Below are positions 4,603-47,286 of a stretch of 64,000 nt of DNA, one piece after another. The position numbers were made by a program, and so were the translations under genes. The notes below the pieces were generated by a model that saw only the letters and a list, made by a program, of their open reading frames with translations, was not told where the DNA came from and made no database searches. The stretch lies in the NCBI GenBank assembly GCA_041665365.1, contig JBAYIY010000007.1, positions 11,103-75,102 of the forward strand, in the 5' to 3' direction. Each line of letters starts with the position of its first letter. Position 1 is the first letter of the stretch. Source of the DNA: Patescibacteria group bacterium (lineage in GTDB: Bacteria; Patescibacteriota; Patescibacteriia; UBA9570).

Positions 4603-4713
4603 AAAATCACGCAGCAAGAATTTTCTGTAATTCCGTATCGAGCCGATCCAAACAGAGAATTAAATACGTATTAATTACCTAGCTACTATTCGAGATGTAC
4701 TGCTATGCAGGGG
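4603..4713. repeat. copy 2 of the direct repeat; its right end overlaps the 3' terminus of tRNA-Trp
   Basis: See copy 1; ends in ...TATGCAGGG, which is the complement of the tRNA 3' acceptor end. Confidence 0.8.
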
Positions 4714-4778
4714 GTGCAGGAATCGAACCCGCCCTAATGGTTTTGGAGACCACTGTACTACCGATATACGAACCCCCT
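4706..4778 (-). tRNA. trnW: tRNA-Trp (anticodon CCA)
   Basis: Reverse complement reads AGGGGGT-TC-GTAT-ATCGGTAG-TAC-A-GTGGT-CTCCAAA-ACCAT-TAGG-GCGGG-TTCGATT-CCTGC-ACCCCCT-G-CA; cloverleaf with anticodon loop CU-CCA-AA, T-loop TTCGATT, near-identical in architecture to E. coli tRNA-Trp. Confidence 0.9.
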
Positions 4779-9823: not shown

Positions 9824-12800
9824 TTATTGTTGTCCCATCAATGCACCCATATCTACTCCAGAGATTCTGACTAGTAATGGTAGTAGTTTTTGCAACTCAG
9901 GTATGCGATAAATGTCTTCAGGTTTTTCGGTAACTAAGGCCGCCATTACTTGTCTTTGTAAACGTTGTTGTAAGGCTTCAAAATTACCACCACTTGAGGC
10001 TAGGGCTTTGATTAAATAGTGAAAGTTTTTATCTGGTGTGCTATGTGGTACGCGCATAATACTGCCCACGAGATCTTTAAATAAATCAGCCGTCGTGGCA
10101 TTATCTCGTAATGCCTTATCAATTACTTCTTGCCAAGTTGCAATAGAACTTCTTTGGCCGGTATATTCATGTACAATTCTTGCCACAGGTTCAGTTTCAC
10201 TGCGCAGGCCTTGTTTAATTAAAATTAATTGTACTGTGAATTCAAGAAAATCTTGCTTCATTTTAGTTGTTTCGCACCGTCCGACACTGCCAGCGTCAAT
10301 TAAACCATAACGTTCATGACCCGGACGCAGATCAACAATACTATTGCCGGCATGAGGGTCGGCATGAAAAATTCCATCATCAGCCACTTGATACAACCAA
10401 TCAATGGCGGCACCGGCTTGAGCCGCTTCAACATCAAAAGTCATATATGGTTCAAGTTCTTTATCAGTTGTACCGGCTGTTTGCAGGCGAATAATCTCAG
10501 CCATAGATAAACCTTCATAAAATTCCTCAACAATCAACTGAATGCGTTGAGCCTCACCCTCACCGCGTTCACGTAAATACAATACCTGCGGCACGGACAC
10601 TGGTAAAGCTAACTTACCGACCTGAATTGTGGCACCACGTTTACGTATTTGCTGACCCAAATCACGGGCGGCGGATGCTTCTTTACCGAAATCAAGCTCA
10701 TCGGTCACTAGTTGGCGTATTTCCGGTACAAACCAATCTGGAATGTTATAACCTTCATGCTGTAAGGCAATAACAACACCATCCAGTACAGTCATATCTT
10801 CCGTAAAATTGCGCGCTGTGTTTGGTCGTTCCACTTTAAAAGCCACCGGTTCACCTTTAGCTGTGGTAGCCTTATGCACTTGTTTAATTGAAGCACTGCC
10901 TCTGCATTCACCAATTTCAGTTAGTTGCACACCGTCAGGACGCGCTTGAAATAACTGAGCGGTTCGAGCATAAGCAAAGACACCTCTTTTATTAAACGGT
11001 GCGCATTTATCTCGTAAGTTTCCTAAATCGGTGCGGATGGTTTCATCGCTAATCAAATCAGGCCGTTCTGATAACACCTGACCAACTTTTACACCCACCA
11101 CGCCTAAACCCTGCAGCACCATACGCAAAGCTTCACCGGGGCGTAACTTTGTTTCACGAATTTTTACTTCGCGTAATTCTTCCAAAAGGTTAACCAAGAA
11201 TTCTACGCGGCGCGCTGGTGAATAACCGGACATGACTTCCTGAAAAATAATTTTACCAATGGTTTGCAGTGGGGGATTATCGGCTAAAGCTTCCATGAAG
11301 ACTAATTCAAAAGTATCTTGAGAAAATTTTTGTAGAGCTTCTTTATCTGGTGTGTGGTTATGACCAACATAAATTGAAAAGGGAGCCACTTCACAGATGC
11401 CACCTTCACCCAATAACGCTGAATAAAAAATGGTACGGCGTTCTTCGGAACTTAACGCCCAAAAGGCGGTGACTTTATCTTGCTCATTAATGTTAAAAGT
11501 TTTACTGGCTAAATAGCGATCATCTGGTAGATCACCACCTAACAACCATAATAAAACCTCAGCCCGTTTGCTTCGATCACTGAACATGGCTAAATAATGT
11601 TTCATTGTTTCGGTAGCGGCAAAAGTCGGTGGTTCACCCGGTGGAAAATCTCCTGGATGATTAGCTTGATAGCGATAGGTTAAACGTTCTAACTCACTAC
11701 ATTGCACTTCGGTGGTGGCTAAGTCTGTCATGAGCGCAAACAAGATTGAATCACGATGATGAGTAGCCTTAGGGAAGCGTATTAATACGTGATCCAATAC
11801 AGCATGAAAGGCTTTATCATTCGCGGCCGCCACCATGGCAGGTAACGGTTCAGCTACATTGCCAAGTGTGGCGACACTGGCTTGGTGGTAATCAACGCGT
11901 AAATGATCAATTTCTAAATCAACGGCTTGACGTTCATACATTTCGCGCAAACCTCCCGTCAGAGACACCGCTGTATCCGTTAAGAAATCCGCGATGATTT
12001 TTTTTTGCGGCACGGAAATAAGATCACCCAAGCGTACTAAACCACTCACTTGAACGCTGGGGTATTTATCCATGTACGCATCTTCAACTATATTGGCACC
12101 AGCTACAACAAAATGATCACGCAAACTAATTGTGCGAGACGCTAAACGAATATTCGCTTTGGCCAGTTGATCCGGCGAACAAAACTTATTAACCACTTGC
12201 CACAATTCATGTTGGGCCAACACATGTAAAAAATAATCGCGAAACATACTTGGTTCGGGCATTAATTCCAGCACGTGAGCTCGAGCAGCCTTAAGTGTGT
12301 CTGGTGCTGACTCCACTCGTTCTAGTTCTGGCAGTAATACTCGTGCTGCATATTTAGCTTTATACATCGGGTCAAGCATAGTTTCGCCCTTATCAGTGCG
12401 TTCAACCGTATCGGAAAACAACAGTAACTCCGCACTGGTTGGGTAAGCCTCCGCGGCAACTTTTTGTTCTTGTTTAAGTTCCCTATGACGCTGTGTCCAA
12501 ACTTTATCACTTACGCTACGGTATTCATATGGATGAGAAGAAGTGTCCCAAGTATGTTTACGTACATTTTCAGCTTCATCCTCCGTTATTTTACCACGAT
12601 CTAATAACCATTTCAGTTTCCAGGCAATACCCGCTGCTGTACCTTCGAAATAGTTGGTTTTAACATACCCATTCACCACATCAGCTGAGCGGTTTACTTC
12701 GGCACCATCACCCAGCTCGGCTTTCATTAAAGCCATGAGTTGTTCAAGTTCAGCTGGTGTGCTGCCGAGACGATCAGCTCTTAACGCCAAACAAAAGTTA

Positions 12801-14179
12801 CGGTAAAAACCTGGCTTGAGTTGTTGCATTTTTTCTAAAGCATCTGGTTCTTGAACAACGGCTTCTAGAATGTGCTTCAGTCTTAATACACGGTTTTTCC
12901 AAAACCACTCTTTGGCCTGTTCTACGACATGTTCAAATGCGGGAGGCGGTGGAAGGTTATTTGGAATATCTTCAATACCATGTTTGTTGATATGTATGTT
13001 TTTAGCAATGGCGCGAGAAGTGATATATCCTTTTGGTGCATCTCGTATTATATCTACCGGATTATCTGGAATATATGGAAAAGCTTCTTTTACACTGACC
13101 GCTAAATCTGCTACGGCCGCTACATCAAAATCACCGCTGGCAACATAGAGCCTAATTAGCGTATCATCATTTATTCCAGCCTCAGCATATTGGGCTTTTA
13201 ATCGATCAGGCGTGAAACATAGTTTATGTAATAATAAAGGCCAAGATAAACGTTTATCTTGATTTTGAGCATCATCAGTAGTGACTAAACTAGTCGGTAA
13301 CAGGTGCAAAATATCTTCCTGGCAAACTCTAGCGTGTTCACTTAACAATGGATTAGCGATTAACCATTGTAGTTCGGCATAATGTTTTGTAAGAACCCGT
13401 AAGTGTTCTGGTGCTTCGGTTTGCCACCGTTTACCCCGTACACCAATAGCTGCTTCCATTAATGGCATCAGCGCAATTAACTCTTCACGACAAGTGTCAG
13501 GATTTTTTGTGTACTCATTGATCAAACCAAGTACATATGGTAAGGCTCCATCTGCTAACTGTAACGCGGCCGTTTCTTGACGAGTTGGTTTCATAGCAAA
13601 CTCGTTATTACGTTCCATTTGCTGAAAACGTTCAACTATAGTAGTGGTGTGTGGTGAACGTTCTTTTTGCAAGGTGCGGACAGTTTCTTTAATATTATGT
13701 TTAGAGAAATATGCCCTAAATAAGGTAATCGTATAACCAAGCTCGGGCGGTGTAGCGGCAATAAAACGTAACATTGGTAGCTCGGGATGCTCTGTGGCGT
13801 GAGTTTGACACCAGTTCTGTAAATGAAGATAGCCATTACCCATTTCTATAAAATCATTACTTTGTAATTGGGTAGTTAACTTTTGATAATTAGCTGGTGG
13901 CCAAACGTGTATTAAATCACGTATGGCATATTCAACTAAACGTTGCCACTGGGCTAATTCAATATCTCTGTTAGCATATCTTCTAGATTCATAAAAACCG
14001 TTCAGGCGACTATCAAAATTATAATCAGTGTATTCACGTTCATCGCTGGTCGTTAAATAGGCTGTTGTGTTATCTCCATAATAACGAGAAGGTATGGGTA
14101 GATCTTGTCCGAATACAACTCGAGCCGAGTGTAATCTATCATGATCGGTTGTATTAATACTATTACCTAGCTTCGTCAT
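9824..14179 (-). CDS. giant (1451-aa) multidomain protein with a C-terminal UbiB/ABC1 (ADCK)-type atypical protein-kinase-like domain
   Basis: Motifs VKVGQVLSERPDL (KxGQ), SASIKQVHKA...VAFKVERP, FHADPHAGNSIV, LIDAGSVG (DFG-like); about 1000 aa of N-terminal sequence without recognisable domains. Confidence 0.6.
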   Translation of the reverse strand: MTKLGNSINTTDHDRLHSARVVFGQDLPIPSRYYGDNTTAYLTTSDEREYTDYNFDSRLNGFYESRRYANRDIELAQWQRLVEYAIRDLIHVWPPANYQKLTTQLQSNDFIEMGNGYLHLQNWCQTHATEHPELPMLRFIAATPPELGYTITLFRAYFSKHNIKETVRTLQKERSPHTTTIVERFQQMERNNEFAMKPTRQETAALQLADGALPYVLGLINEYTKNPDTCREELIALMPLMEAAIGVRGKRWQTEAPEHLRVLTKHYAELQWLIANPLLSEHARVCQEDILHLLPTSLVTTDDAQNQDKRLSWPLLLHKLCFTPDRLKAQYAEAGINDDTLIRLYVASGDFDVAAVADLAVSVKEAFPYIPDNPVDIIRDAPKGYITSRAIAKNIHINKHGIEDIPNNLPPPPAFEHVVEQAKEWFWKNRVLRLKHILEAVVQEPDALEKMQQLKPGFYRNFCLALRADRLGSTPAELEQLMALMKAELGDGAEVNRSADVVNGYVKTNYFEGTAAGIAWKLKWLLDRGKITEDEAENVRKHTWDTSSHPYEYRSVSDKVWTQRHRELKQEQKVAAEAYPTSAELLLFSDTVERTDKGETMLDPMYKAKYAARVLLPELERVESAPDTLKAARAHVLELMPEPSMFRDYFLHVLAQHELWQVVNKFCSPDQLAKANIRLASRTISLRDHFVVAGANIVEDAYMDKYPSVQVSGLVRLGDLISVPQKKIIADFLTDTAVSLTGGLREMYERQAVDLEIDHLRVDYHQASVATLGNVAEPLPAMVAAANDKAFHAVLDHVLIRFPKATHHRDSILFALMTDLATTEVQCSELERLTYRYQANHPGDFPPGEPPTFAATETMKHYLAMFSDRSKRAEVLLWLLGGDLPDDRYLASKTFNINEQDKVTAFWALSSEERRTIFYSALLGEGGICEVAPFSIYVGHNHTPDKEALQKFSQDTFELVFMEALADNPPLQTIGKIIFQEVMSGYSPARRVEFLVNLLEELREVKIRETKLRPGEALRMVLQGLGVVGVKVGQVLSERPDLISDETIRTDLGNLRDKCAPFNKRGVFAYARTAQLFQARPDGVQLTEIGECRGSASIKQVHKATTAKGEPVAFKVERPNTARNFTEDMTVLDGVVIALQHEGYNIPDWFVPEIRQLVTDELDFGKEASAARDLGQQIRKRGATIQVGKLALPVSVPQVLYLRERGEGEAQRIQLIVEEFYEGLSMAEIIRLQTAGTTDKELEPYMTFDVEAAQAGAAIDWLYQVADDGIFHADPHAGNSIVDLRPGHERYGLIDAGSVGRCETTKMKQDFLEFTVQLILIKQGLRSETEPVARIVHEYTGQRSSIATWQEVIDKALRDNATTADLFKDLVGSIMRVPHSTPDKNFHYLIKALASSGGNFEALQQRLQRQVMAALVTEKPEDIYRIPELQKLLPLLVRISGVDMGALMGQQ

Positions 14180-16292
14180 AGAAATTTATTTCGATGGGTC
14201 GACCACTGGCATCAGTAAACAAATCTCTCAATTCAGTTGCATCTTCGGCCACACCGGCGGCATACAATTCAGTCGCCAGACGATTCAATGGTCTTTGTAA
14301 TTCAGTCTCGTCAATGGTTGTTAAGTTTGATGGTTTTTTAAAAAAACGCGACATCAACCCAGCCAACCCGGTTGGCTTGTCCAACTCAACCAGAAAGTAA
14401 TTTTCGGGCAAACCAAGTTGCTCAGCCTTGTCTCTTAAAATGTTTACTATTTCTTGCAACCAGGCCGGCCGATTTGGTTCACTAAGGTTAATGCGTAAAC
14501 CTTCTTCCAACCACCGTTTAAACAAAACCCGTTTGATGTCTTTTTGATGAAAAAACGGTGGTTTATATACTGTTCCGGCCACAGTAGCCATGTGGGTTGA
14601 AGGTTTTTCTGGAATACCCCGAGCTAATTGCTGAATATAGGGGTGGTTCTGTAAAGTTTGTACAGTGCGCATGGCTGCCCCAATTTTACCGTGGTCTTGC
14701 GCGTGAATATTCAAACCTAGCGCACCGGTCATTACTTCAAGTAATGGTTTATGTAAATTATTAAAACGATCTACATAATCAAGGCGATCCCCTCGTGTAA
14801 AAGGTAGGTCACTTTGGGCATGTGTATAATCATACACCGGTAAAGTACGCATGACTGTTGGTACAACTTTCCACTGCTGCAAATCTTTTAAATCATCGAA
14901 TAGAATAACATCATGGGCAAATTTTGGATAAATAGTATCATGGGTGGCGCGGCGAAATAGCTCATCTTTAACGGTTTGTGTAACTGTAGTAACTCGTTCA
15001 CCTGTGACGTGTTCAATATGGTCTGGTGTAATAACCGCATCAAAATGATGTCGTAATAATTTTTGTAAACGTTGGTAAATTTTACCAAATCTGGTTTTGG
15101 ATAATCTTGTACCAGAACCAATCATGGCAGCATGTTGAAAAGGCTGAAAAGTTGATTCAAAAGAACGCGTCGGTGGTAATTGATACCCAGTGTTTATTGT
15201 AGCTGGTAGAGCTACTTGTTTTTCAGAGCGTGATAATCGCGCTTGTACAGTAGTGGCGAGTTCGGCTAACGATGATGGTATAGTTGGTAAGGCACTAGTC
15301 GTGATTGAATCAGTGGAAGTTTTGGGTGGTAACTCCTCGAGTAATTTTAAAGCGGCGTTTTTAAGGTCGATAGATTCTTGTCCGGTAAGTGTGTAGTGAA
15401 ATTCAAAACCGCGTAACCAGCGCTGGGCTAAATTAGCTATAAATGTGTCTTTATGTTGTTTAATCTTCGCTTTTTTATCAAAATGTGATTCTATTTTCCA
15501 GTATTTTAATGCGGCTGGATTAGTGTGATCAAATAGATCTTCCAATTTTGTAAATGGCTCAGTGGGTGGGAGTTCTGGAGGTACTAAAACAGCATGTTGA
15601 CGATGGAATTTAATCGCATCTGTCATTATAGTGCGATTAATACTGTCGGGATCATGCAATGTAGTATCTTCTGAAGTTGGGTTTTGGACTAAATCTTCTA
15701 AAACTTTACCGCGATAATCATTATCTGGTGAACGAGGTTGGGAAAACATTCTTGACTCAATGGCTAGTGGATTAATCAATGAACAATATAGACTTTCGCC
15801 CGATAAGGCTAAATTCGCTTCGTAAAGAATAGCGTTGTGATAACCGAATCGGTCATGTTCTAGTGCATCATACACGGCTGCCAGAGCAGTGCGCATATCA
15901 AGCTGTAATCGAAATACTTCTAAAGCCATTAAACCATCTCGAAAAGTGGCGCGAGGATTATTTTCTATATCATCGAGTATATTATTCCAATCTTCAGCAG
16001 TGCGAGCTACTTGTAATTGTTGTAACAGTTTTTCTCGAGCTAAATCTTTGGCGTCTTCTAGTGCCGCATCACTAAACAGTTGCTGCGGTTGATCGGCATT
16101 ATACACAATGCGTTCTGGGCGATGATACTCTTCTTCCAGTGCGGTTAAACGGTTCTGTGTGATGGGGTGAGTTTTTGTAAAATAATGTTCAATCACTTGT
16201 TTCCAGTTTGGGCGACCAGTGGCTTGCAGTAAGACACGTTGTAACTCAATGGCGGCTTGTGGATTATAGCCGGCTAAATCGGCGCCTTCCAT
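14163..16292 (-). CDS. large hypothetical protein (709 aa), co-directional with and overlapping the 1451-aa gene by 17 nt
   Basis: Long ORF, no recognisable motifs; upstream in-frame sequence IIGHELRHL lies between its ATG and the TAA of the preceding ORF. Confidence 0.5.
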   Translation of the reverse strand: MEGADLAGYNPQAAIELQRVLLQATGRPNWKQVIEHYFTKTHPITQNRLTALEEEYHRPERIVYNADQPQQLFSDAALEDAKDLAREKLLQQLQVARTAEDWNNILDDIENNPRATFRDGLMALEVFRLQLDMRTALAAVYDALEHDRFGYHNAILYEANLALSGESLYCSLINPLAIESRMFSQPRSPDNDYRGKVLEDLVQNPTSEDTTLHDPDSINRTIMTDAIKFHRQHAVLVPPELPPTEPFTKLEDLFDHTNPAALKYWKIESHFDKKAKIKQHKDTFIANLAQRWLRGFEFHYTLTGQESIDLKNAALKLLEELPPKTSTDSITTSALPTIPSSLAELATTVQARLSRSEKQVALPATINTGYQLPPTRSFESTFQPFQHAAMIGSGTRLSKTRFGKIYQRLQKLLRHHFDAVITPDHIEHVTGERVTTVTQTVKDELFRRATHDTIYPKFAHDVILFDDLKDLQQWKVVPTVMRTLPVYDYTHAQSDLPFTRGDRLDYVDRFNNLHKPLLEVMTGALGLNIHAQDHGKIGAAMRTVQTLQNHPYIQQLARGIPEKPSTHMATVAGTVYKPPFFHQKDIKRVLFKRWLEEGLRINLSEPNRPAWLQEIVNILRDKAEQLGLPENYFLVELDKPTGLAGLMSRFFKKPSNLTTIDETELQRPLNRLATELYAAGVAEDATELRDLFTDASGRPIEINFYDEAR

Positions 16293-16403
16293 GCCGGCTA
16301 AATCGGCATCATATTCAAAACGGACACTTTCATCAGTTGGTCTATCTGGTTTATCAGGTTGATATTTTTTTTGTTGGAGATGACGTAACTCATGTCCAAT
16401 AAT

Positions 16404-17069
16404 TTAAGCCAAATGATCTTTGGTAAAGACCTTTTTTTGTTCGACAAACATTTTATGCAACTGTGTAATGAACCCAATATTAACAAACACGTGCACTGGT
16501 TCGGTTGAAGGAACGGTGTAATCTTCATCTAATTTTTCAGTACGTAAAACATAAGCATTCATGTCTGTACTACGCGTTAACTCCAATAAAACTGGGCGCC
16601 GAAAACCCATCGCCTCAGACACATTGGCGACAATCTCACCAACTTCTTGATATATGACAGATTCACGTTGTTCAGCTTCTGTTAAAGTTTCAGTGGTCGT
16701 ACGTTTATATTCAAGTTGTAATCGTGTCCGCAAACGGCGGGTGGCTTCTTGTACAGGACGACGGCGTTCTAAAAACTCCTGGCGTTCCGGAACGGATTCA
16801 TCGCCATAATTAAGACGTTCACGATCAATCTCATAACGTAAGGCTCTAATCCACTCCACTGAGTGCGTGGGGTCTTTAAATTCTATTGTAGTTGAATCAC
16901 TTGTAGATTGTGTAAGTTGTTCCAGTGCGACACCGGCTAATTCACTAGTACGGGTATCAGACATCATCAGTCTGGTTAATATCAACAACGTGCGATCATC
17001 ACGCGAGAGCTCTAAAGTTAGTTCAGTACTCTCGCGTTGCTCGCCTCGTTTAGGTTTTATTTCAGGCAT
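16404..17069 (-). CDS. hypothetical protein (221 aa), in the same frame as the 709-aa ORF and separated from it by a single TAA
   Basis: ORF coordinates are in phase (37 sense codons between this ORF's stop at 16404-16406 and the ATG at 16290-16292). Confidence 0.45.
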   Translation of the reverse strand: MPEIKPKRGEQRESTELTLELSRDDRTLLILTRLMMSDTRTSELAGVALEQLTQSTSDSTTIEFKDPTHSVEWIRALRYEIDRERLNYGDESVPERQEFLERRRPVQEATRRLRTRLQLEYKRTTTETLTEAEQRESVIYQEVGEIVANVSEAMGFRRPVLLELTRSTDMNAYVLRTEKLDEDYTVPSTEPVHVFVNIGFITQLHKMFVEQKKVFTKDHLA

Positions 17070-17075
17070 GTGATG

Positions 17076-17651
17076 TTATACCAGATGCAACTTGTGTTCG
17101 ATTACCGTCACACGTTGATTGAGCTCGGTCACCTCAAACCGGTAAGCCACGTTGTCTTGGCGTAATTTAAGTTCATCCTGACCTTGTTCAAGATTAGATA
17201 ATCTATAATCAACTCGATCGAAGCGTTCATCGACCGAATCAAAACCCAGTTTAGTGGCCATGGCTAAATCATCTACCGTAGTAGTTAAATTATCCATTCT
17301 TGTGGATAAGCTATCTACTTTACCATCAACATGATCCACTTTAGTAGATAAACTATCAACCTTTGTATCTAAAATATCTGTTTTCGTCGATAAACCATCA
17401 ACTTTGGTATCTAAACTATCCATCCGTGTGGATAGAGTGTCAACTTTAGTGGTTAATTTATCCGTTCTCGTGGATAAACTATCTACAGTTTTAGTTAATC
17501 CATCCGTTTTTGTGGATGAAATACCAACTATATTAACTAAACTACTGACGATTGCTGTCAAACCGTCCATTTTGTCTGCTAGATTGTCTAGCGTGATTGT
17601 TTTCTTCATAAAGTGTTTCCCAATACTTTGGCGGCGCTTTTGTAAACACAC
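17076..17651 (-). CDS. coiled-coil protein with about 10 tandem 11-residue repeats (xKVDxLSTxxD)
   Basis: VDSLSTRTDKLTTKVDTLSTRMDSLDTKVDGLSTKTDILDTKVDSLSTKVDHVDGKVDSLSTRMDNLTTTVDDL; matching 33-bp periodicity in the DNA at 17290-17560. Confidence 0.55.
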   Translation of the reverse strand: MCLQKRRQSIGKHFMKKTITLDNLADKMDGLTAIVSSLVNIVGISSTKTDGLTKTVDSLSTRTDKLTTKVDTLSTRMDSLDTKVDGLSTKTDILDTKVDSLSTKVDHVDGKVDSLSTRMDNLTTTVDDLAMATKLGFDSVDERFDRVDYRLSNLEQGQDELKLRQDNVAYRFEVTELNQRVTVIEHKLHLV

Positions 17652-36784: not shown

Positions 36785-36814
36785 AGTATACGAAATTGTG
36801 TTATACTTGTCTAT

Positions 36815-39032: not shown

Positions 39033-39087
39033 TACATTCCAGTAAGCCTTTTGCGAGTTTTATTTTTTTCTGTTATAATTTTAACCA

Positions 39088-39951
39088 ATGAATTATCTTC
39101 GCATTGTCTTTGCCCATTGGATTGCCATATTGTTCATCACCACTGCGGCCGCGGCGCTTACGGTCGGGTTATCTTTTATTCCTACCCAGATGTATTCATC
39201 GGAGGTGTCTTTATTGATTGTGCAGAAACAAGCGCAGTATGTTGACCCTTACACATCACAGAAAGCTGCCGAAAAGTTGGGGCAAAATTTAGTGAATGTG
39301 ATCGACTCATTTGATTTTTTAAACCGCGTTTTGGCCACCGGCACAGTCTCACCCGATTTATTTAGTGCTTCCACTGATGCCCGTAAAAAACAATGGGAAG
39401 CCATGACTGATGCGGAAATGTTTAGTAACACTGGTGTGTTGCATATCACCGCTTATGCCCCCACCGCCGGTGCCGCTGAAGATGTGGTGATGGCCATGAG
39501 TACAGTGCTCACTACTAATTCATCAGATTATCATGGTGGGGGAGATACCGTTGAGATTAAGCTCATCGATGGGCCGGTCACATCGGATAGTCCGGTAAAA
39601 CCAAACATTCCATTAAATGGTGCGATTGCGGCTGTGTTAGGCCTAATCGCCTCGGCGGCTGTATTTATTGTTTATGAAGAAACCAAACGGTTACAAGATG
39701 AACAAGCCAAGGTGAGGTATGTGCAAACCGTCACGCCTGGTAGAGACGTGCCGCCGGCACGTCTCTACGATGATCGGATTGAAAAATCTGATCAAATCAT
39801 AGAGCCCCAATATAAGGTATTAGATGAATACCCCAAACAGCCATATGTGTATGGTGCGGAATTGAAGGATGAAGAACCTCGCCAAGGGGCGGGTGAACCT
39901 CGCCAAGGGGCGGGTGAACCGGTGTCGATGCAGGATCATTTGAAAAAATAG
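39088..39951 (+). CDS. Wzz/YveK-like polysaccharide chain-length-determinant N-terminal domain protein with a C-terminal EPRQGAG tandem repeat
   Basis: N-terminal TM helix followed by YSSEVSLLIVQKQ... typical of Wzz/Cap8A N-termini; a family-C palindrome (39740-39768) and a 21-bp tandem duplication (39886-39927) lie inside the ORF. Confidence 0.4.
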   Translation: MNYLRIVFAHWIAILFITTAAAALTVGLSFIPTQMYSSEVSLLIVQKQAQYVDPYTSQKAAEKLGQNLVNVIDSFDFLNRVLATGTVSPDLFSASTDARKKQWEAMTDAEMFSNTGVLHITAYAPTAGAAEDVVMAMSTVLTTNSSDYHGGGDTVEIKLIDGPVTSDSPVKPNIPLNGAIAAVLGLIASAAVFIVYEETKRLQDEQAKVRYVQTVTPGRDVPPARLYDDRIEKSDQIIEPQYKVLDEYPKQPYVYGAELKDEEPRQGAGEPRQGAGEPVSMQDHLKK

Positions 39952-40065
39952 GGGTTTTCCCCAGTAATTTAGGTAAAAAAACGAGTTCAAATAAATGGAC
40001 TCGTTTTAGTATTGACAAAAAGTAGAAATAATGCTAAATTGTTCAGTTATTTTTGGGGACATATG

Positions 40066-40220
40066 TACCCCCTAGCCCCCTTGCAGGGGGTAAAAGATAA
40101 CAATAAACTTATGCACCTTTTCACTATGAACAGTTAGTACGAACGGGGATACCATGAGTGTACCCCCAACCCTCATCTCTTATCCCCTTGAAAGGGGGAC
40201 AGAGGGGGTAAATTCCGGAG
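40066..40220. repeat. repeat family A copy (long internal region), immediately abutting leader module copy 1
   Basis: GTACCCCCTAGCCCCCTTGCAGGGGGTAAAAG ... CTTATCCCCTTGAAAGGGGGACAGAGGGGGTAAATTCCGGAG. Confidence 0.75.
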
Positions 40221-40760
40221 TGGGTAAACACCAGTTAGTCTCACACGAATCAGATGAGAACACCATCAAAGTGAAGGTGTTGCCATGTGGTTCGTCTGTA
40301 TAGCCGGTGATCAGCAATGATCGCTGGCTGTCATGAATCACTCAACCCGAAAGGGTTAAGCACATTTACAATCTACTTTCCTACTTCGACTCGTTTCACT
40401 CGCTCAGTATAAATTTATTGAGCATGTAAGCTTGTCGAATGATCATCGGTAGCGATATACAGACCTCATCAATATACATACTTCTTTGAGTACACCACCC
40501 TAGCCCTCCTATTCTAGGAGGGAATAAGAATAAATTTTCTTACTCCCTTCCTACAATAGGAAGGGCCGGGGATGGTGTATTCCGGAGAGGGATACGTATC
40601 CGGAGAGGTCTCCATATCGCTACCGATGAAACCAACAATATCGGAGCTCGGTTCCCCAACGGGGAGACATTCGTCGCGGCAATTTCGCCGTGATGTATGT
40701 CCACCCGGACGTGAACCGGGACCGATCGACTTCACTCGACTACATGGAGCTACGAAAACA
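40204..40760 (+). repeat. leader module copy 1 (~555 bp), a mosaic duplicate of 42546-43053, ending at the start codon of the first GC-rich gene; contains a family-B repeat bracketed by a 23-bp imperfect inverted repeat (ATCGGTAGCGATATACAGACCTC / GAGGTCTCCATATCGCTACCGAT)
   Basis: Shared blocks GGGGGTAAATTCCGGAGTGGGTAAACACCAGTTAGTCTCACACGAATCAGATGAGAACACCATCAAAGTGAAGGTGTTGCCATGTGGTTCG, AATCATCGGTAGCGATATACAGACCTCATCAA, the whole family-B element, and GAACCGGGACCGATCGACT...GGAGCTACGA.AATGACG. Confidence 0.8.
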
Positions 40761-42236
40761 ATGACGTTCAAGAACATCCTCGCGATCTTCACGTTCATCT
40801 TCGCCATTCTCGCCCCGGCGACCGTCGCCCAGGCCCAGGAGAAGTGGGAGGATCCAAAAGTGGGTCCGTTCACTCTCGGGTACTGGTCGAAGCTCGATGC
40901 CGGCGCGACCAGTGTCGACGCCGCGGCGGCCGGGATCATGAAGAACTTCAAGGAGTGTGAGAGCAAGTACGGCCAGGGTGGGTGCTACATCCAGTTCGAA
41001 TCATCTACTGACATCAACCGCTGGGACAACACCAAGAATGGCAAGGACGACGCATTGCACGGTGGGCTCGGAGAGGGACGCACCGCGGTCCTCAAGGACG
41101 CGGTGTTTTCTCGATCCGCAAGGATCAAGGAATACTCGGTCACCGACTACCCCCACCACGGTGCGAAAGATGGATGGCGGTACTCCTGGGCGACGATCAT
41201 GCCCAAGGAAGGTGCCTCCGCGATGCCGAAGGTGTCGGCCGACCCCAACAAGAGGTGGAGCTTCCTCACGGAAGTGCTCCTCCGCCAGACCGATAACCTC
41301 TGTCCCACGATGGTGCGGGCGGACGCGGTCACGCGAACCTACACCCTGCAGGGTCAAACCTGCGGGTGCAGCACGTTCGATGCAGTGCCCAGCACCCGCC
41401 AGTTGGAGGTCAGGAACGACCTCACCTGGTTGGGAAAGGTCGTCGCGGACCGCTCGAAGTGGTCCGACGCGAAGACTTTGACCTGGACGGAAGTCCGGGC
41501 CGCTCTCGAGGAGGGCACCGAGTCCCGCGTCATCGAAGTCGACGCGCTCGGCGATCCGTCCTCCACGCCCGACGGTCTGTCCGTTGAGTTCGTGGAGTCG
41601 GAGACCCTGCTCCGGGTGCAGTTCCCGGACAGGTGCTCGCCGATCCTCGACGCCGCGAAGGCAGAGGCCGACGCCAAGGCGCAAGCCAAGGCTCAGGCCG
41701 ACGCCGACGCCCGCGAGTCCGCAAGGCTCGCGGCGTACAACACCGACTTCATGGTCGGTGGGTCGGTCGCGGGTACGGGGACGTTCATCCCCAAGTACAG
41801 CCCCTTCAACCCGGGCAGGGGTTTCGACCTCGCCGGGCACGTCGAGGGCGGTGCGGTGATCGGCGGCGGGTACGGCGCGTGGGCTTTCGGGCTCGGCGTC
41901 GGCCCGTCGTGGGACCCGAACTGCCTGACCCCCGGCCAGGTTGACCTCGAGGCCTTCACCGGCCCGTGGCTCAACAGGCAGGGGAAGGTCGGGTTCTCCG
42001 CCTTCCTGAACGGATCTGCGGGCTTCACCATGTACAACGGTGAAGTCCTCACCCCGCGGTACCGCCTGGGTCTCAACCTGGGCGTGCCCGTGCAGGTGGA
42101 GCGTGAGCTCTACCTGGTTCCCCAGATCGGCCCCGTGGTCGACTGGGTGAGCGGGCAGGTGCAGGCGACCGGCGGCTTCGCGATCACCGAGCGAGTCGGG
42201 ATCGCGGGTGGTCTGCGGATCATCAAGACGTTCTGA
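40761..42236 (+). CDS. GC-rich, probably horizontally acquired secreted protein with a C-terminal OMP-like beta-barrel region (C-terminal Phe). The start is set at MTFKNILAIF; the ORF-track start at 40572 lies inside the repeat leader
   Basis: Signal peptide MTFKNILAIFTFIFAILAPATVAQA; AKAEADAKAQAKAQADADAR low-complexity linker; glycine- and aromatic-rich alternating C-terminal region ending ...GLRIIKTF; codon usage strongly GC3-biased, unlike flanking genes. Confidence 0.6.
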   Translation: MTFKNILAIFTFIFAILAPATVAQAQEKWEDPKVGPFTLGYWSKLDAGATSVDAAAAGIMKNFKECESKYGQGGCYIQFESSTDINRWDNTKNGKDDALHGGLGEGRTAVLKDAVFSRSARIKEYSVTDYPHHGAKDGWRYSWATIMPKEGASAMPKVSADPNKRWSFLTEVLLRQTDNLCPTMVRADAVTRTYTLQGQTCGCSTFDAVPSTRQLEVRNDLTWLGKVVADRSKWSDAKTLTWTEVRAALEEGTESRVIEVDALGDPSSTPDGLSVEFVESETLLRVQFPDRCSPILDAAKAEADAKAQAKAQADADARESARLAAYNTDFMVGGSVAGTGTFIPKYSPFNPGRGFDLAGHVEGGAVIGGGYGAWAFGLGVGPSWDPNCLTPGQVDLEAFTGPWLNRQGKVGFSAFLNGSAGFTMYNGEVLTPRYRLGLNLGVPVQVERELYLVPQIGPVVDWVSGQVQATGGFAITERVGIAGGLRIIKTF

Positions 42237-42428
42237 TCTGAGTAGGAAAGTAGGTTAGGGTGAGGGGGTATAGGTTGTGTCGCAAGTCTGCGAACAATCT
42301 GTACCTCCTCCCCACCTACACAAATATGAATAAGGGATAATGTCTCTCGAGGTAGTGACCTCGGTAAACATGGTTCCTGATTCAACTGAATAAGGAATCG
42401 GTCTTTAAAAATAATCTATGGTTAAAAC

Positions 42429-42562
42429 CTTTACCCCCTCTGTCCCCCTCTCGCCTCTGCGAAGCCGCTACGGCGGAGCACGGTGCAGGGGGATAAGAAA
42501 AGAAGTTTTAAAAATATCTTCTCATAGCCCCCTGCAAGGGGGTTGGGGGTAAATTCCGGAGT
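42429..42562. repeat. repeat family A copy in inverted orientation, with a 37-nt GC-rich insertion in one hairpin loop
   Basis: TTTACCCCCTCTGTCCCCC-[TCTCGCCTCTGCGAAGCCGCTACGGCGGAGCACGGTG]-CAGGGGGATAAGAAAAG ... TAGCCCCCTGCAAGGGGGTTGGGGGTAAATTCCGGAG. Confidence 0.75.
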
Positions 42563-43053
42563 GGGTAAACACCAGTTAGTCTCACACGAATCAGATGAGA
42601 ACACCATCAAAGTGAAGGTGTTGCCATGTGGTTCGAAGAGTCATAGTCGATCAGCAATGATCGCTTGTGACCACGAAACACAATTTGTTCTTTAAAATCT
42701 TCTGCTAAGAATCATCGGTAGCGATATACAGACCTCATCAAGCATACACACTTCTTTGAGTACACCACCCTAGCCCCCCGCCTTGCCGGCGTGGCAGGTC
42801 CTATTCTAGGAGGGAATAAGAATAAATTTTCTTACTCCCTTCCTACAATAGGAAGGGCCGGGGATGGTGTATTCCGGAGAGGGATACGTATCCGGAGAGG
42901 TCTCCATATCGCTACCGGTGAAAACAATACCGGCGTGCTCGGTTCCCAGAATGGGAAAGATGCGGTTGTGGGAATGTTCCCATGACATGTGTTCTACCCT
43001 GTTCAAAAGAACCGGGACCGATCGACTACACAATTTCGACTGGAGCTACGACA
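42546..43053 (+). repeat. leader module copy 2 (~510 bp) preceding the second GC-rich gene
   Basis: See copy 1; the central segment differs (about 50 nt versus about 120 nt), and the first hairpin of the family-B element carries a CCCGCCTTGCCGGCGTGGCAGGT insertion. Confidence 0.8.
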
Positions 43054-43839
43054 ATGACGCTCAAAAACATCGTGATCTCGCTCGCGCTCGTCGTCGGTTG
43101 CAAGATGGGCCCGGTGCAGGAATGTGACTCGGACTCGGACTGCTTCGAAACCAACACCAACTCCGATACCGACACCGACGCGGACACGGACACGGACGCC
43201 GACGCTGATACGGACACGGACTCCGACACCGATACCACCGAAACCGACGTGGACAACGACGGCGACGGGTACACCGTGGACGGCGGGGACTGCAACGACG
43301 CCAACGCCAGCGTCCACCCGGGCGCGACCGAGTACTGCAACGGCGTCGACGACGACTGCAACGGGTCGATCGACGACAATGACACCGACGGGGACGGGTA
43401 CGTCTCCGACGACTGCACGTCATATGACGGAGTCGCCGGCCTCCCCGGTGGTGATTGCGCGGATTCGATCGGGACGACGGCGTCCTGGTCGAACAGCGAT
43501 ATCCACCCGGGGCAGTTGGAAATGTACGACTGGATCGACACTAACTGCGACGGCACCGCCGACGATGGATGTAGTATGTTGTGCGACACCGACGGCGACG
43601 GATACGAGAATTTCGAACAGGGCAGCGGGCCCGAGTTCGAGTGCGTGGACGCGTCGTTCGTGGCGGATCAGTCCGCCTCGAGCAGCCCGTTCGATACGAC
43701 GATCTCGTGGACGTATGCCTCCAGCGGAGTGGTTTACTCCGGTGTGAACGCAACGTGCGAAATGACGGCGGCCCAGCAGGTCGATCCGTCAACCTGGAGG
43801 ACGATCACGTCCATCCAGGCCGAGATGGCCACCCGCTAA
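43054..43839 (+). CDS. GC-rich, probably horizontally acquired lipoprotein with a (D-T/D-A)n linker and repeated Cys-rich MopE-type 'putative metal-binding' motifs
   Basis: Lipobox LALVVGC; DTDTDADTDTDADADTDTDSDTDT; DGDGYTVDGGDCNDANASVHPGATEYCNGVDDDCNG and DGDGYVSDDC...DTNCDGTADDGC repeats. Confidence 0.6.
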   Translation: MTLKNIVISLALVVGCKMGPVQECDSDSDCFETNTNSDTDTDADTDTDADADTDTDSDTDTTETDVDNDGDGYTVDGGDCNDANASVHPGATEYCNGVDDDCNGSIDDNDTDGDGYVSDDCTSYDGVAGLPGGDCADSIGTTASWSNSDIHPGQLEMYDWIDTNCDGTADDGCSMLCDTDGDGYENFEQGSGPEFECVDASFVADQSASSSPFDTTISWTYASSGVVYSGVNATCEMTAAQQVDPSTWRTITSIQAEMATR

Positions 43840-44107
43840 AGGTGGTTATCTCAACCGGAGATTGGTAGTTCTCCGGGCACAGACATAAGTGCAAACAAAA
43901 AACCAAAATCTTCTAGCAGAAGATAGATCAGCTCGGGAGGTGGCATGAGTAGAGCACACAAACGCTCCTCGCCACCTCCCACCTTCGCTCTAAGAAGAGC
44001 TTCGGCGGGCAAGCCCACCTAATAATGTATCCAGAATCAAATAGTATTATGGATAGATTAATGGGAAATAGTAATTAACAAATAGGAGTTAGGAAATAAA
44101 TAGGGGG

Positions 44108-44134
44108 TTGACGTGACCTTTTTTTTGATATAAT
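44108..44134 (+). promoter_or_regulatory. strong sigma70-like promoter (TTGACG-15 nt-TATAAT) 9 nt upstream of the antitoxin ATG
   Basis: GGGGGTTGACGTGACCTTTTTTTTGATATAATATCGATTTATG. Confidence 0.45.
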
Positions 44135-44142
44135 ATCGATTT

Positions 44143-44391
44143 ATGACTACGGCTAAATTAGTAAAAACAGTAAATTCATGTCCAAAGACAAGTTTGAATG
44201 ACAAACCGGTTGTTATGATACCCATGGAACTATGGGAAACGCTTCAGGTACAATTACTAACAAGACCAGTCCCGACTTATTATTTGCAAGGAAAAGAGGC
44301 AAAACAATTAGATCATCTTGTTCAACAAGGTATAAACGCAGCTCGATCGAGAAAAACTAGAGTAATAACTTCACTTGCAGAGTTAGATTAG
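44143..44391 (+). CDS. Phd/YefM-like type II antitoxin
   Basis: 82 aa; ...NDKPVVMIPMELWETLQ... matches the core Phd/YefM fold pattern. Confidence 0.45.
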   Translation: MTTAKLVKTVNSCPKTSLNDKPVVMIPMELWETLQVQLLTRPVPTYYLQGKEAKQLDHLVQQGINAARSRKTRVITSLAELD

Positions 44392-44395
44392 CCCA

Positions 44396-44716
44396 TGAAC
44401 ATACAGGTCACAGATCGTTTCGTTAAGCAATATAAAAAATTTATCGATGAGGTTAGATGATGATTATGGAAAAATAAAAATACGAAGTCACACTGAAAAA
44501 GATATTAAAATGTGCTACCAGCACATTTTTTTGTATTCAGCGTTATCAGTTCTTTCAGCGCCTCAGCGATCCATTTGGCCGTGTGGCCTTGTCTCCACAA
44601 CAATCATGGCTAGCACTGTCATATATGTCCACATCACGGCGGTACCTTGGAGTAGATTATCACTGACACTAATTGTTAGCGCGGCAATAATTAAGGCCAT
44701 ACCAAACAGAGCATAG
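44396..44716 (+). pseudogene. decayed RelE/ParE-family toxin remnant (21-aa N-terminal fragment MNIQVTDRFVKQYKKFIDEVR-stop, followed by a frameshifted continuation that overlaps the 3' end of the convergent O-antigen-ligase gene)
   Basis: A typical RelE/ParE N-terminus lies 4 nt after the antitoxin stop and is then interrupted. Confidence 0.35.
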
Positions 44717-45966
44717 TGTTTTTGCCAGCTGTCTTCATGGTGGCTAACATAATTCCAGAATAGTGTTACTAACAAACCTAGCCAGAAACCAAGATACAGA
44801 GCCAAACCAACGAAGCCGGTTTCAATGGCTAAACGGAGATAATCATTATGGGCTTCAGGGTCATCAAACAAACCGATATCGCCCTGTTGTCTTAAAGTCA
44901 CAAAGTTGCCTAAACCGTAACCGAGAAGGGGAGAATTGAGGGTTTGCGGTGCCATAGTTTGAAACACCTGTAAGCGCCAATCAATCGAATCGGCTTCCTC
45001 ATCACGACTGGTTAGGCGATGTAAGAGGTTTATTTTATTTAGATCATAATTAAAAGTATTGATGGTAACAGTGTTGATTACTTGCCACAACAAAAATGCA
45101 CCGACTAAGACAGTAGCAATAGTGAGTAATTGTTTACGATAATATTTTAGGCCAATTAATATTTGAATGACGACAAAACCAATCCAGGCACCTCGAGTAT
45201 AGGTGAATAATAACATCACCAACCCCAAGCCGATTAGCCATGGATATATTAAAGACCGTTGTTCAGGTTTTTTAGTCAGTTGGGTGATTAATAATAAATT
45301 TATGATACATACCAAATAAAACCCAAACACATTCGGGTGACCAAAGGTGCCATAGACGCGGTTATCTAAACCACCAAATGATAGCCCGGTGGCGGTAATA
45401 AGCTGCACCAAGCCAGCGGCTAATGGTATCACCAGAGCCACGGCTAGTACCGGTGTTAGCCGCGTGATACTGTGTGGTTGTGTGGTAGCCACGTGGTAGG
45501 CAATTATAAAAATAATCACAATCGAACTGAGGCGGAGCCATTCACTCAATGAGATAAATGTATCCAAGCTGACACCCAAGGTGGCGGCTCCCCAGATTAA
45601 AACTCCAATCAGCCAGCCCAATTGGGTAGTGGCACTAAGTTCAACCCGTTCTCTAAGTAGAATTACTAAGAACCACACAATCACCAATATTGCCACCATG
45701 GAAGTTAAATTTATAGTGACTGATCGAATGGTTAAAAGGCCATAGCCAGAAAATATATCAATGATCGGGCGAAAGATGAGTAGGGCATATAAACCATACT
45801 CGGTTTTTAATAAAAAAATTGGGGCGATAATTACAATGGCCGCTAAGCCAATGGCGGATGTAGCAGAAATATCTCCAAATACTATCCAGCCTAATACACT
45901 TAACACTGTTAGGCTGTATATAATTAAAAGTATGGTGTTGAATTTTGAAAGTGGGGAGAAAGACAT
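44563..45966 (-). CDS. O-antigen ligase / Wzy-like polytopic membrane protein
   Basis: 467 aa, about 12 TM helices, with a large periplasmic loop containing YTRGAWIGF... in the position expected for a Wzy_C domain. Confidence 0.5.
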   Translation of the reverse strand: MSFSPLSKFNTILLIIYSLTVLSVLGWIVFGDISATSAIGLAAIVIIAPIFLLKTEYGLYALLIFRPIIDIFSGYGLLTIRSVTINLTSMVAILVIVWFLVILLRERVELSATTQLGWLIGVLIWGAATLGVSLDTFISLSEWLRLSSIVIIFIIAYHVATTQPHSITRLTPVLAVALVIPLAAGLVQLITATGLSFGGLDNRVYGTFGHPNVFGFYLVCIINLLLITQLTKKPEQRSLIYPWLIGLGLVMLLFTYTRGAWIGFVVIQILIGLKYYRKQLLTIATVLVGAFLLWQVINTVTINTFNYDLNKINLLHRLTSRDEEADSIDWRLQVFQTMAPQTLNSPLLGYGLGNFVTLRQQGDIGLFDDPEAHNDYLRLAIETGFVGLALYLGFWLGLLVTLFWNYVSHHEDSWQKHYALFGMALIIAALTISVSDNLLQGTAVMWTYMTVLAMIVVETRPHGQMDR

Positions 45967-45989
45967 TGAGATTATTATAACACATCAAT

Positions 45990-46024
45990 CCAGTAGAGAC
46001 ATGCCATGGCATGTCTCTACTGGA
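45990..46024. repeat. family-C perfect palindrome CCAGTAGAGACATGCCATGGCATGTCTCTACTGG (17-bp stem) between the GC-rich minus-strand gene and the O-antigen-ligase gene
   Basis: Read directly; likely transcription terminator or insulator. Confidence 0.7.
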
Positions 46025-46103
46025 TTGATAAAAAAAAGAGGCCCCGGGAGATTGTCATGTACATGCGTAGTACAGACAACCTCAACCGGGGCGTCCAAAT
46101 TCT

Positions 46104-47159
46104 TTACTTGACGGCGACCGTAGGGTTCGCCACCACGAGGATACTCCCCATGATGGTCTCCACGTCGCCGGCGTAATTCCCGCCGGCATTGTGGAGGTCG
46201 ATCCCCTCGGCCTTCACCACCTCTTCCCGGACGCCGTCAGCGACCGGGAAAGCCACCTCGCCCTCGCCGTACGAATCGTCGACGACGAAGAAGAAATGAT
46301 CCCGGGCGACTTCACAAAGTCGTTTGCCCGGGAGAGTGGTCAGACTCGAACACTTGAACCCCTCCGGCAGCACGAGGATGCTGCCCATCGTGAGTTCCGG
46401 AATCGTTCCGGTGTACTCACTCAGGGCGTAGCTATCCCCGGAGCCGGCGAGGGGCCCGGTGAAGCAATCGTAGCCCGACGAGGCGCCATCGCCGCAAGAG
46501 AGGTGGGTATGATCCACCTCAATGGGCAACGGCCGCCCGATCGGGCCAGTCTGAGTCAATTCTCCCACACGCACCGCCTGGGTCGCGGTCGTGTGGGAGC
46601 CACCGTGAGCCCCAACCCAGCGGGTGGAGTCATATCCCTTCTCACACGCGCTGAACGGCGCGGAGTCGGGGAGGACCCACCCGGACGAGCCGTCGAAGTA
46701 GCTGATTTCAACAACGGTACCGTCAGGCTGCAGGGCCGTGACGATCCCATTGTTGTACAGATCATCCGACGTGTCCCTCATGGCGAAGGAATCGGGGAGG
46801 TAAACCTCCCTCGTTCTCCTGCCATCGGGGGCTGTCACGGTCACCGGTGACGAGTCTTTCGACCCGTCGAGGACAAAAACCGGGTCGATGTCGACCCAGT
46901 CAAGTCCTCCGTCCCAGTCCGTCTCGACCGTCCGGGCGATCTTGCGATCAACCTGGAGGTCACGGATCTGGAACGGCACCGAGGCCCAGCACTCGGCCGG
47001 GGTCTCGGTGTCGGTGTCCGCGTCAGTGTCAGAGTCGGTGTCCGTCTCCGCTTCGGGGCAGGTCGCCCCGGGCAGAGACGGATCACAATTGAGCTCTCCA
47101 CACCCCGCCACCAAAATGGTGACCAGGACGAGGAGCAGCTCGATGATGTAGCGCAACAT
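46104..47159 (-). CDS. GC-rich, probably horizontally acquired lipoprotein (351 aa) with a TDTDSDTDADTDTE linker
   Basis: Lipobox ILVAGC; good RBS AGGAGcagtcATG; GC-rich codon usage; several conserved Cys/His (HTHLSCGDG) but no confident family assignment. Confidence 0.55.
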   Translation of the reverse strand: MLRYIIELLLVLVTILVAGCGELNCDPSLPGATCPEAETDTDSDTDADTDTETPAECWASVPFQIRDLQVDRKIARTVETDWDGGLDWVDIDPVFVLDGSKDSSPVTVTAPDGRRTREVYLPDSFAMRDTSDDLYNNGIVTALQPDGTVVEISYFDGSSGWVLPDSAPFSACEKGYDSTRWVGAHGGSHTTATQAVRVGELTQTGPIGRPLPIEVDHTHLSCGDGASSGYDCFTGPLAGSGDSYALSEYTGTIPELTMGSILVLPEGFKCSSLTTLPGKRLCEVARDHFFFVVDDSYGEGEVAFPVADGVREEVVKAEGIDLHNAGGNYAGDVETIMGSILVVANPTVAVK

Positions 47160-47286
47160 GACTGCTCCTTACCCCTGGTCGGGGTGGGGGGACTGTTTGT
47201 TCGTCAAGTAATATGAATTTGGAAAGAACTAGTGTCGCTTACAGACAAAATTTGCCCATAAACGAACCGCACAATATACCCTATTT

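Follow-up and report, generated by a model that had tools for sequence, protein, structure and literature searches.

Members of the M48 peptidase family (Pfam PF01435), such as E. coli BepA/YfgC (PDB 6ait, 6sar), HtpX and the Geobacter peptidase of PDB entry 3c37, share an HExxH motif in the active-site helix, a later E-x-x-A-D ligand motif and an AGYxP...HP signature. BepA is a periplasmic protein, and HtpX and Ste24 are membrane proteins. In the lipid droplets of cyanobacteria and plastids, an M48 protease is found together with ABC1K kinases in a single functional assembly (PGM48/sll1280 and ABC1K1/3/7; PMC12223511). Here we describe an M48 gene on contig JBAYIY010000007.1 of an uncultured Patescibacteria group bacterium (assembly GCA_041665365.1). 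It lies in a 64,000-nt stretch of that contig, which was analysed as a whole and is hereafter called the window, and it is split by a single in-frame TAA into two open reading frames (ORFs) of 221 and 709 amino acids. These two ORFs very probably represent one M48 gene that has been cut by a genuine, recent and disabling nonsense mutation.

The translated gene carries all three of the M48 sequence features listed above and, as judged from the model of an intact homologue, resembles BepA in having a helical region after the protease domain. Unlike BepA, HtpX and Ste24, the window protein has neither a signal peptide nor a membrane segment. It also differs from known M48 members in its helical additions (∼140 residues at the N-terminus and ∼650 at the C-terminus), in belonging to a family whose members invariably occur next to, or fused with, a giant ABC1 kinase-like protein, and in that its reading frame is broken. 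In this last respect the locus resembles nonsense pseudogenes, including the "pseudo-pseudogenes" of Salmonella, which are reported to be translated at a low level through the disruption (PMC9122581): a single in-frame stop, intact orthologues, flanks in one frame and an otherwise undecayed sequence. The Salmonella cases differ in context, as read-through there mainly involved UAG followed by C where the window has UAA-A.

The interrupted gene and its family

The whole interrupted gene (14163..17069, minus strand, as for all of its parts below) comprises 968 sense codons and one internal TAA by translation. The 221-residue ORF (16404..17069) is the N-terminal fragment, ending in ...KDHLA. It covers a helical N-terminal region and the first half of the M48 core, and contains no zinc ligand. 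The premature TAA is codon 222 (16404..16406), four codons ahead of His226 of the HExxH motif, and the minus-strand letters around it read AAA GAT CAT TTG GCT TAA ATT ATT GGA CAT GAG TTA CGT CAT CTC CAA. The 37 codons that follow (16293..16403) are in the same frame and free of stops. Their translation, IIGHELRHLQQKKYQPDKPDRPTDESVRFEYDADLAG, starts with IIGHELRHLQQ and runs to EYDADLAG. This "spacer" therefore contains HELRH (16380..16394; His226, Glu227 and His230), which matches the zinc-binding and catalytic HExxH motif. It also contains the GAA codon (16314..16316) of Glu252 in RFEYDAD, an invariant alignment column and the predicted third zinc ligand, a role that we assume by extension from what is generally known of M48 peptidases. 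The 709-residue ORF (14163..16292) is the C-terminal fragment, with the last third of the M48 core and the helical extension. Its ATG (16292-16290) is the codon of Met260, a near-invariant internal methionine across the family alignment, and not an evolved start codon.

The first-pass annotation of the window had remarked that the two ORFs share a frame and that the intervening codons are open and encode HELRH; both observations are correct on the minus strand. By chance, however, an open spacer in a common frame is not rare (roughly 1/3 for the frame, times ∼0.1–0.2 for 37 open codons). Since chance alone could produce such an arrangement, the case for a single gene is made by homology.

A search of 5.8 billion protein clusters identified ten relatives of 898–992 residues, covering 52–100% of the joined product; seven of them cover 97–100% of it, with identities of 32–57% (BLASTP). 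The 13 related loci from genomes and metagenomes that were read at the DNA level are all uninterrupted across the stop site, and the complete ones are single ORFs of 920–992 residues. The residue at the stop column is Ser in the two closest relatives, whose DNA reads GCC AGC ATT/ATG ATT GGx CAT GAR with the serine codon AGC at the stop position, and Ala or Gly in the other aligned relatives; three further loci, read at this motif only, have Phe. The similarity extends through the spacer, which is identical to the nearest relative, P0003, at 29 of 37 positions (78%); identity is 58% over the full length of the protein, and 65% and 55% in its N-terminal and C-terminal parts, respectively. The spacer is thus the best-conserved segment of the protein, and its predicted catalytic heart. 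The first-pass annotation had proposed that a recent nonsense mutation had interrupted one protein of about 968 residues, and it had named homologues consistently encoded as two separate genes, without similarity across the spacer, as the finding that would speak against this. The opposite is observed: the joined product aligns end-to-end with uninterrupted relatives, which supports the proposal.

The joined product, with X in place of the stop, matches Peptidase_M48 with a score of 37.3 bits (E = 3.3e-9; gathering cut-off 20.3 bits), in two stretches, one before the stop and one after it. When a family profile was searched against the PDB, it matched the M48 peptidase 3c37 (E = 3e-9), aligning LAgilGHELrH with LAGVLAHEINH, and RfEYDaD...AGYNP...HP with EYENQAD...AGYNP...HP. 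All 11 aligned proteins share nine invariant residues (H226, E227, H230, E252, D254, D256, G267, N269 and P270), so that the HExxH motif, whose conservation had been left to be checked, is fully conserved, and the window gene retains every residue that is invariant in the family. For the fold, the protein modelled with AlphaFold was the intact homologue P0003 and not the window protein itself. The P0003 model has a mean predicted local distance difference test score (pLDDT) of 73.6, rising to ∼90 in the core, and both the stop position and HExxH map within its active-site helix (residues 217–232, pLDDT ∼90). The best solved Foldseek matches of this model are E. coli BepA (6ait/6sar, E = 2e-4) and 3c37 (template modelling score 0.58 on the target), while the helical C-terminal extension of ∼650 residues has no confident structural match. 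No hydrophobic segment was detected in the joined protein (the highest 19-residue Kyte-Doolittle mean is 1.05), which suggests that the protein is probably cytoplasmic. The gene is thus predicted to encode a soluble M48-family zinc metalloprotease with an all-helical C-terminal extension. As the TAA at codon 222 divides the catalytic domain, the window locus is a disrupted member of Peptidase M48.

The family is small, uncharacterised and largely restricted to Patescibacteria. It has 24 representatives at E ≤ 1e-30 among 1.84 billion, and the named members carry Kerfeldbacteria, Uhrbacteria or Patescibacteria labels, except for two metagenome-assembled genomes (MAGs) labelled Gammaproteobacteria. 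Word-indexed protein searches with the 221-residue fragment or with a 25-sequence alignment returned known members only. An NCBIfam search of the protein gave no match, and the PADLOC defence models matched neither the M48 protein, nor its fragments, nor the ABC1 partner described below.

Several further features were noted in and around the gene. An exact 15-nt direct repeat, GCCGATTTAGCCGGC, is present at 16293-16307 and 16269-16283 (minus strand), on either side of the ATG of the 709-residue ORF. It encodes ADLAG twice (ADLAG-MEG-ADLAG), and the doubled motif is partly kept in relatives; the second copy is the site of a TGA in one related contig (L014, see below). Directly upstream of the 221-residue ORF, and in the same frame, is a separate gene for a 191-residue protein (17076-17651, minus strand). 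Its product is a highly repetitive coiled coil with TKVDxLSTKxD repeats and a weak match to DUF7310. Relatives lack it at this place; upstream they have CorA or some other gene of the opposite strand. In the P0016 lineage (L025 793-975 and L026 534-716), the start was probably called wrongly, at a Met in profile position 74: some 60 in-frame codons ahead of it align with the N-terminus of the family, yet none is ATG, GTG or TTG. There is just a run of Ile codons, which suggests a non-canonical start.

The stop codon in three assemblies and in its genomic setting

The TAA is present in three assemblies: an ENA assembly (ERZ27249449; contig L001, 85,638 nt), a Joint Genome Institute (JGI) sample (3300037810; contig L002, 6,492 nt) and the NCBI MAG (80,614 nt). 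L001 is 100% identical to the window over 7.4 kb. L002, from the same strain, has no mismatches over 6.5 kb; its only differences are a scaffold gap of 10 N and a deletion of one base. Both contain GGCTTAAATT at the stop site. For the NCBI MAG the TAA is implied by the gene calls. The 221-residue protein is MFA6475333.1 (hypothetical protein WCV88_04005), and MFA6475332.1 is a 746-residue "M48 family metalloprotease" that starts at the ATT (16401-16403) directly after the TAA. This 746-residue product is an annotation artefact of the split gene and does not speak for an ATT start. An intact allele of the window gene was not found among the 5.8 billion protein clusters, and an exact-pattern scan of metagenome contigs for strain variants at the stop site gave no matches.

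The deletion in L002 shortens an A6 run to A5 at window position 14339 (about 2700 in L002; run TTTTTTTAAAAAACC), near codon 912, and truncates the C-terminus to give a 656-residue ORF ending in ...FFKNHQT. This is a second lesion in the gene, unless it is a homopolymer error.

The first-pass annotation also stated that no other TAA of this kind is obvious and that a global code change is unlikely, and we agree on both points. The 52 non-overlapping window ORFs of at least 120 residues end in TAA (29), TGA (14) or TAG (9). A global reassignment of TAA can be rejected, since TAA is the commonest ordinary terminator here. An in-frame stop interrupts none of the other window genes; the remaining cases of neighbouring ORFs in one frame are adjacent genes of the ordinary kind, or frames left open by chance in a G+C-rich island. 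Shine-Dalgarno motifs are almost absent before the window genes, so that their lack before the internal ATG or ATT is uninformative. Several ATGs are preceded, at ∼7–12 nt, by TATAAT-like boxes (GGTATAACATCAC-ATG, GTTATAATTTTAACCA-ATG and GTTATACTTGTCTAT-ATG; examples at 17070-17085, 39070-39087 and 36795-36814), a pattern that suggests leaderless mRNAs, or mRNAs with very short leaders, in this genome.

The age of the lesion was examined with four Tajima relative-rate tests, comparing the window lineage with P0002 or P0003 and using P0004 or P0005 as the outgroup. No acceleration was detected (83 versus 71 unique changes, p = 0.33; p = 0.33–0.62 over the four tests), nor was any seen when the two halves of the protein were tested separately. 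A second stop or frameshift was not found in the 968 codons of the window gene, which thus shows neither of the signs of relaxed constraint that were sought, extra lesions and a faster rate. The lack of both argues that the mutation is recent. If the inactivation is not recent, the gene cannot be entirely dead.

Other disrupted members and the origin of the stop

A second disrupted lineage emerged from the representatives search, as a 232-residue protein (ending in ...TRDHLAAVLGS) and a 728-residue protein (starting with MDKPPADAEEHQRYEYDAD) that are adjacent on one contig, found in three assemblies (L019, L020 and L021). The gene occupies 1237-4153 of L019, and its N-terminal fragment is 55% identical to the intact relative P0025. 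The L019 DNA reads CTT GGG TCA TGA A, and the +1 frame gives LGHELAHLKQ. A T has been inserted here immediately ahead of the HExxH His codon (GGG T CAT GAA), at a distance of three codons from the site of the window TAA. The relative L023 has CTC GGG CAT GAG at this site, and deletion of one base at the L019 junction restores an ORF of 971 codons. The arrangement is reminiscent of the +1 frameshifting of prfB (CUU UGA C), in that the two frames could be joined by a slip of tRNA-Gly from GGG to GGU, two codons before the UGA, and that such a slip would give the conserved LGHEL. Unlike prfB, however, L019 lacks an upstream Shine-Dalgarno-like stimulator, the A site would not be occupied by the stop when the slip codon is read, and relatives do not keep the sequence (GGG CAT in L023). 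The window lesion itself is a stop and not a frameshift.

Two further lesions are each seen in a single contig. The 2,613-nt JGI contig L014 differs by one base (L014 position 1999, L004 position 3384) from L004, the locus of the intact P0003. The change converts Leu265 from TTA to TGA in GMEGAD-L-AGYNP, within the M48 core; it may be an error, as the matching intact contig L004 has only 3.5x coverage. In L028 (about 584-633), a T7 run has become T8 near codon 322, where the M48 domain ends (...RPDRPFF|SADV...). This frameshift splits the gene into a partial 210-residue ORF and a 632-residue ORF, and the downstream ABC1 gene is intact. Other apparent splits were rejected: P0016, P0017, P0041 and P0049 reflect truncation at contig edges or start-calling problems, and P0027 and P0030 come from the error-ridden contig L022 (about 1x coverage).

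The first-pass annotation offered a sequencing error and programmed read-through as alternatives to a nonsense mutation. That the true genome has a sense codon at 16404-16406 is extremely improbable. The sequence does come from a MAG, and the several assemblies may share overlapping read sets. Yet three assemblies of different lengths and from different pipelines all carry the TAA, and a substitution error in a consensus is improbable at a site that is not a homopolymer. Translational recoding, in which the UAA would be read through at a useful rate, whether programmed or leaky, to yield some full-length active protease, draws some plausibility from the frame preserved on both sides of the stop, from the otherwise intact gene and from the translated pseudogenes reported in Salmonella (PMC9122581). 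We nevertheless consider it very unlikely. No relative has a stop at this position, all 13 loci having a sense codon (Ser, Ala, Gly or Phe), and UAA is the least leaky stop codon. The context UAA-A is the commonest of ordinary TAA terminators in the window (10 of the 28 other TAA-ended ORFs). The predicted RNA fold of the 151 nt around the stop is no better than that of shuffled sequences (z = -0.66). An Rfam scan of the window returned one tRNA and no other family or recoding element. That tRNA, tRNA-Trp(CCA) at 4707-4778, is the only tRNA gene in the 64 kb, and no suppressor tRNA reading UAA is present in the window. Known stop reassignments in bacteria all concern UGA (PMC8629427). Programmed read-through is thus unsupported, although trace read-through may occur. 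Literature searches gave nothing on read-through or on an M48-ABC1 gene pair in Patescibacteria.

Two observations weigh against a simple random loss. The complete lack of decay fits a still-expressed gene as well as it fits a very young pseudogene. In addition, the +1 frameshift of the second lineage lies so close to the window stop that the coincidence would be expected in only ∼1% of cases if positions were uniform (p about 0.01 for two uniform events within four codons), which hints that the position is not random. One could suppose that the protease has been selectively switched off, its loss being advantageous or the only tolerated inactivation of the module, while the N-terminal fragment, the helical C-terminal domain (translated anew from an internal start codon) and the coupled ABC1 partner keep a function. 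Both well-supported lesions are independent, lie directly upstream of HExxH and occur in otherwise intact alleles, and the weaker L014 and L028 cases also fall in the protease core. If the five lesions (window TAA, L019 frameshift, L014 TGA, L028 T8 and L002 A5) are counted, four are in the M48 core, a region that makes up 19% of the gene (binomial p of about 0.005). These statistics, however, are post hoc and based on a tiny sample. L014 and L028 are single contigs, with the low coverage of L004 in the first case and a homopolymer in the second, and the profile with which fragments were found detects the M48 core best. For each disrupted allele, all known copies are near-identical (at least 99.6%), so there is no sign that a split state has persisted. 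None of the aligned relatives has a missense change in HExxH, the simplest route to a dead protease, and the break falls in the middle of a helix of the P0003 model, not in a loop. A selected switch-off is thus unlikely. It is similarly doubtful that the M48 domain of this protease-kinase module of the Candidate Phyla Radiation (CPR) is a recurrent target of inactivation, either because the protease is selected off or because recoding serves as a throttle on a harmful enzyme. We record the clustering near HExxH as a lead towards selection against protease activity, not as a finding.

A recent and real loss-of-function mutation, rather than a recoding signal, therefore remains the most likely origin of the stop, and the window gene carries what is predicted to be a disabling lesion relative to its intact orthologues. 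One recent base substitution would have created the TAA at codon 222, in the active-site helix and four codons before HExxH. From the Ser, Ala or Gly of relatives we infer TCA (Ser) as the most economical precursor codon. Ribosomes would then terminate at codon 222 and release a 221-residue fragment without a zinc ligand, and any restart at the ATT or at Met260 would yield a product that lacks the β-sheet half of the M48 core and has its active-site helix cut midway. Since the first product would have no zinc ligand and the second no N-terminal half of the catalytic fold, protease activity has most likely been lost. The locus would then be a young pseudogene or, at best, a protease-dead remnant. 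Its translationally coupled ABC1 kinase-like downstream partner stays intact.

The M48-ABC1 gene pair and other features of the window

The partner gene (9824..14179, minus strand) encodes a 1451-residue protein with a C-terminal ABC1 atypical-kinase domain (residues 1094–1319; Pfam ABC1, E = 8e-26). It is intact, and its start overlaps the end of the protease gene by 17 nt. Wherever the DNA of a related locus extends far enough, the gene for an ABC1 relative of ∼1450 residues immediately follows the M48-like gene; in the low-coverage contig L026 the ABC1 partner is also split. In four distant relatives (P0032, P0033, P0036 and P0040) the two are fused into single proteins of 2243–2450 residues, with the M48 domain near the N-terminus and ABC1 near the C-terminus. 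Such fusion is classic evidence that two proteins act together, as would be predicted here. The M48-ABC1 pair is thus an uncharacterised giant protease-kinase module, found largely in Patescibacteria. It resembles the plastoglobules and cyanoglobules (PMC12223511) in bringing together an M48 metalloprotease and ABC1 kinases, here as adjacent, overlapping genes. The CPR proteins, however, are 4–7 times larger and have no known lipid-droplet context, so that this is a resemblance only.

Elsewhere in the window, a G+C-rich island at about 40000-48500 has a G+C content of 0.53–0.58, compared to about 0.40 in the remainder, with a dip to 0.40 at 44–46 kb. Rfam finds nothing there, and the island contains no rRNA. 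It holds surface-polysaccharide genes and was possibly acquired horizontally. The genes assigned to it are a Wzz-like gene (39088-39951), a gene for a protein with a MopE metal-binding motif (42982-43839), a Wzy_C O-antigen ligase gene (44563-45966), a GT4 glycosyltransferase gene (47287-48543) and two ORFs without a Pfam match (40572-42236 and 46104-47159).

Taken alone, the window locus is an ordinary young nonsense allele in a MAG, in a poorly known gene family. Its immediate value is for annotation, as the two ORFs should be recorded as one disrupted M48 gene. That the very small CPR genomes spend ∼7 kb on the M48-ABC1 module suggests an important role for it. If breaks at the active site do recur, the module would become a candidate for a costly or conditionally harmful function, and the natural knock-out alleles could serve its study.

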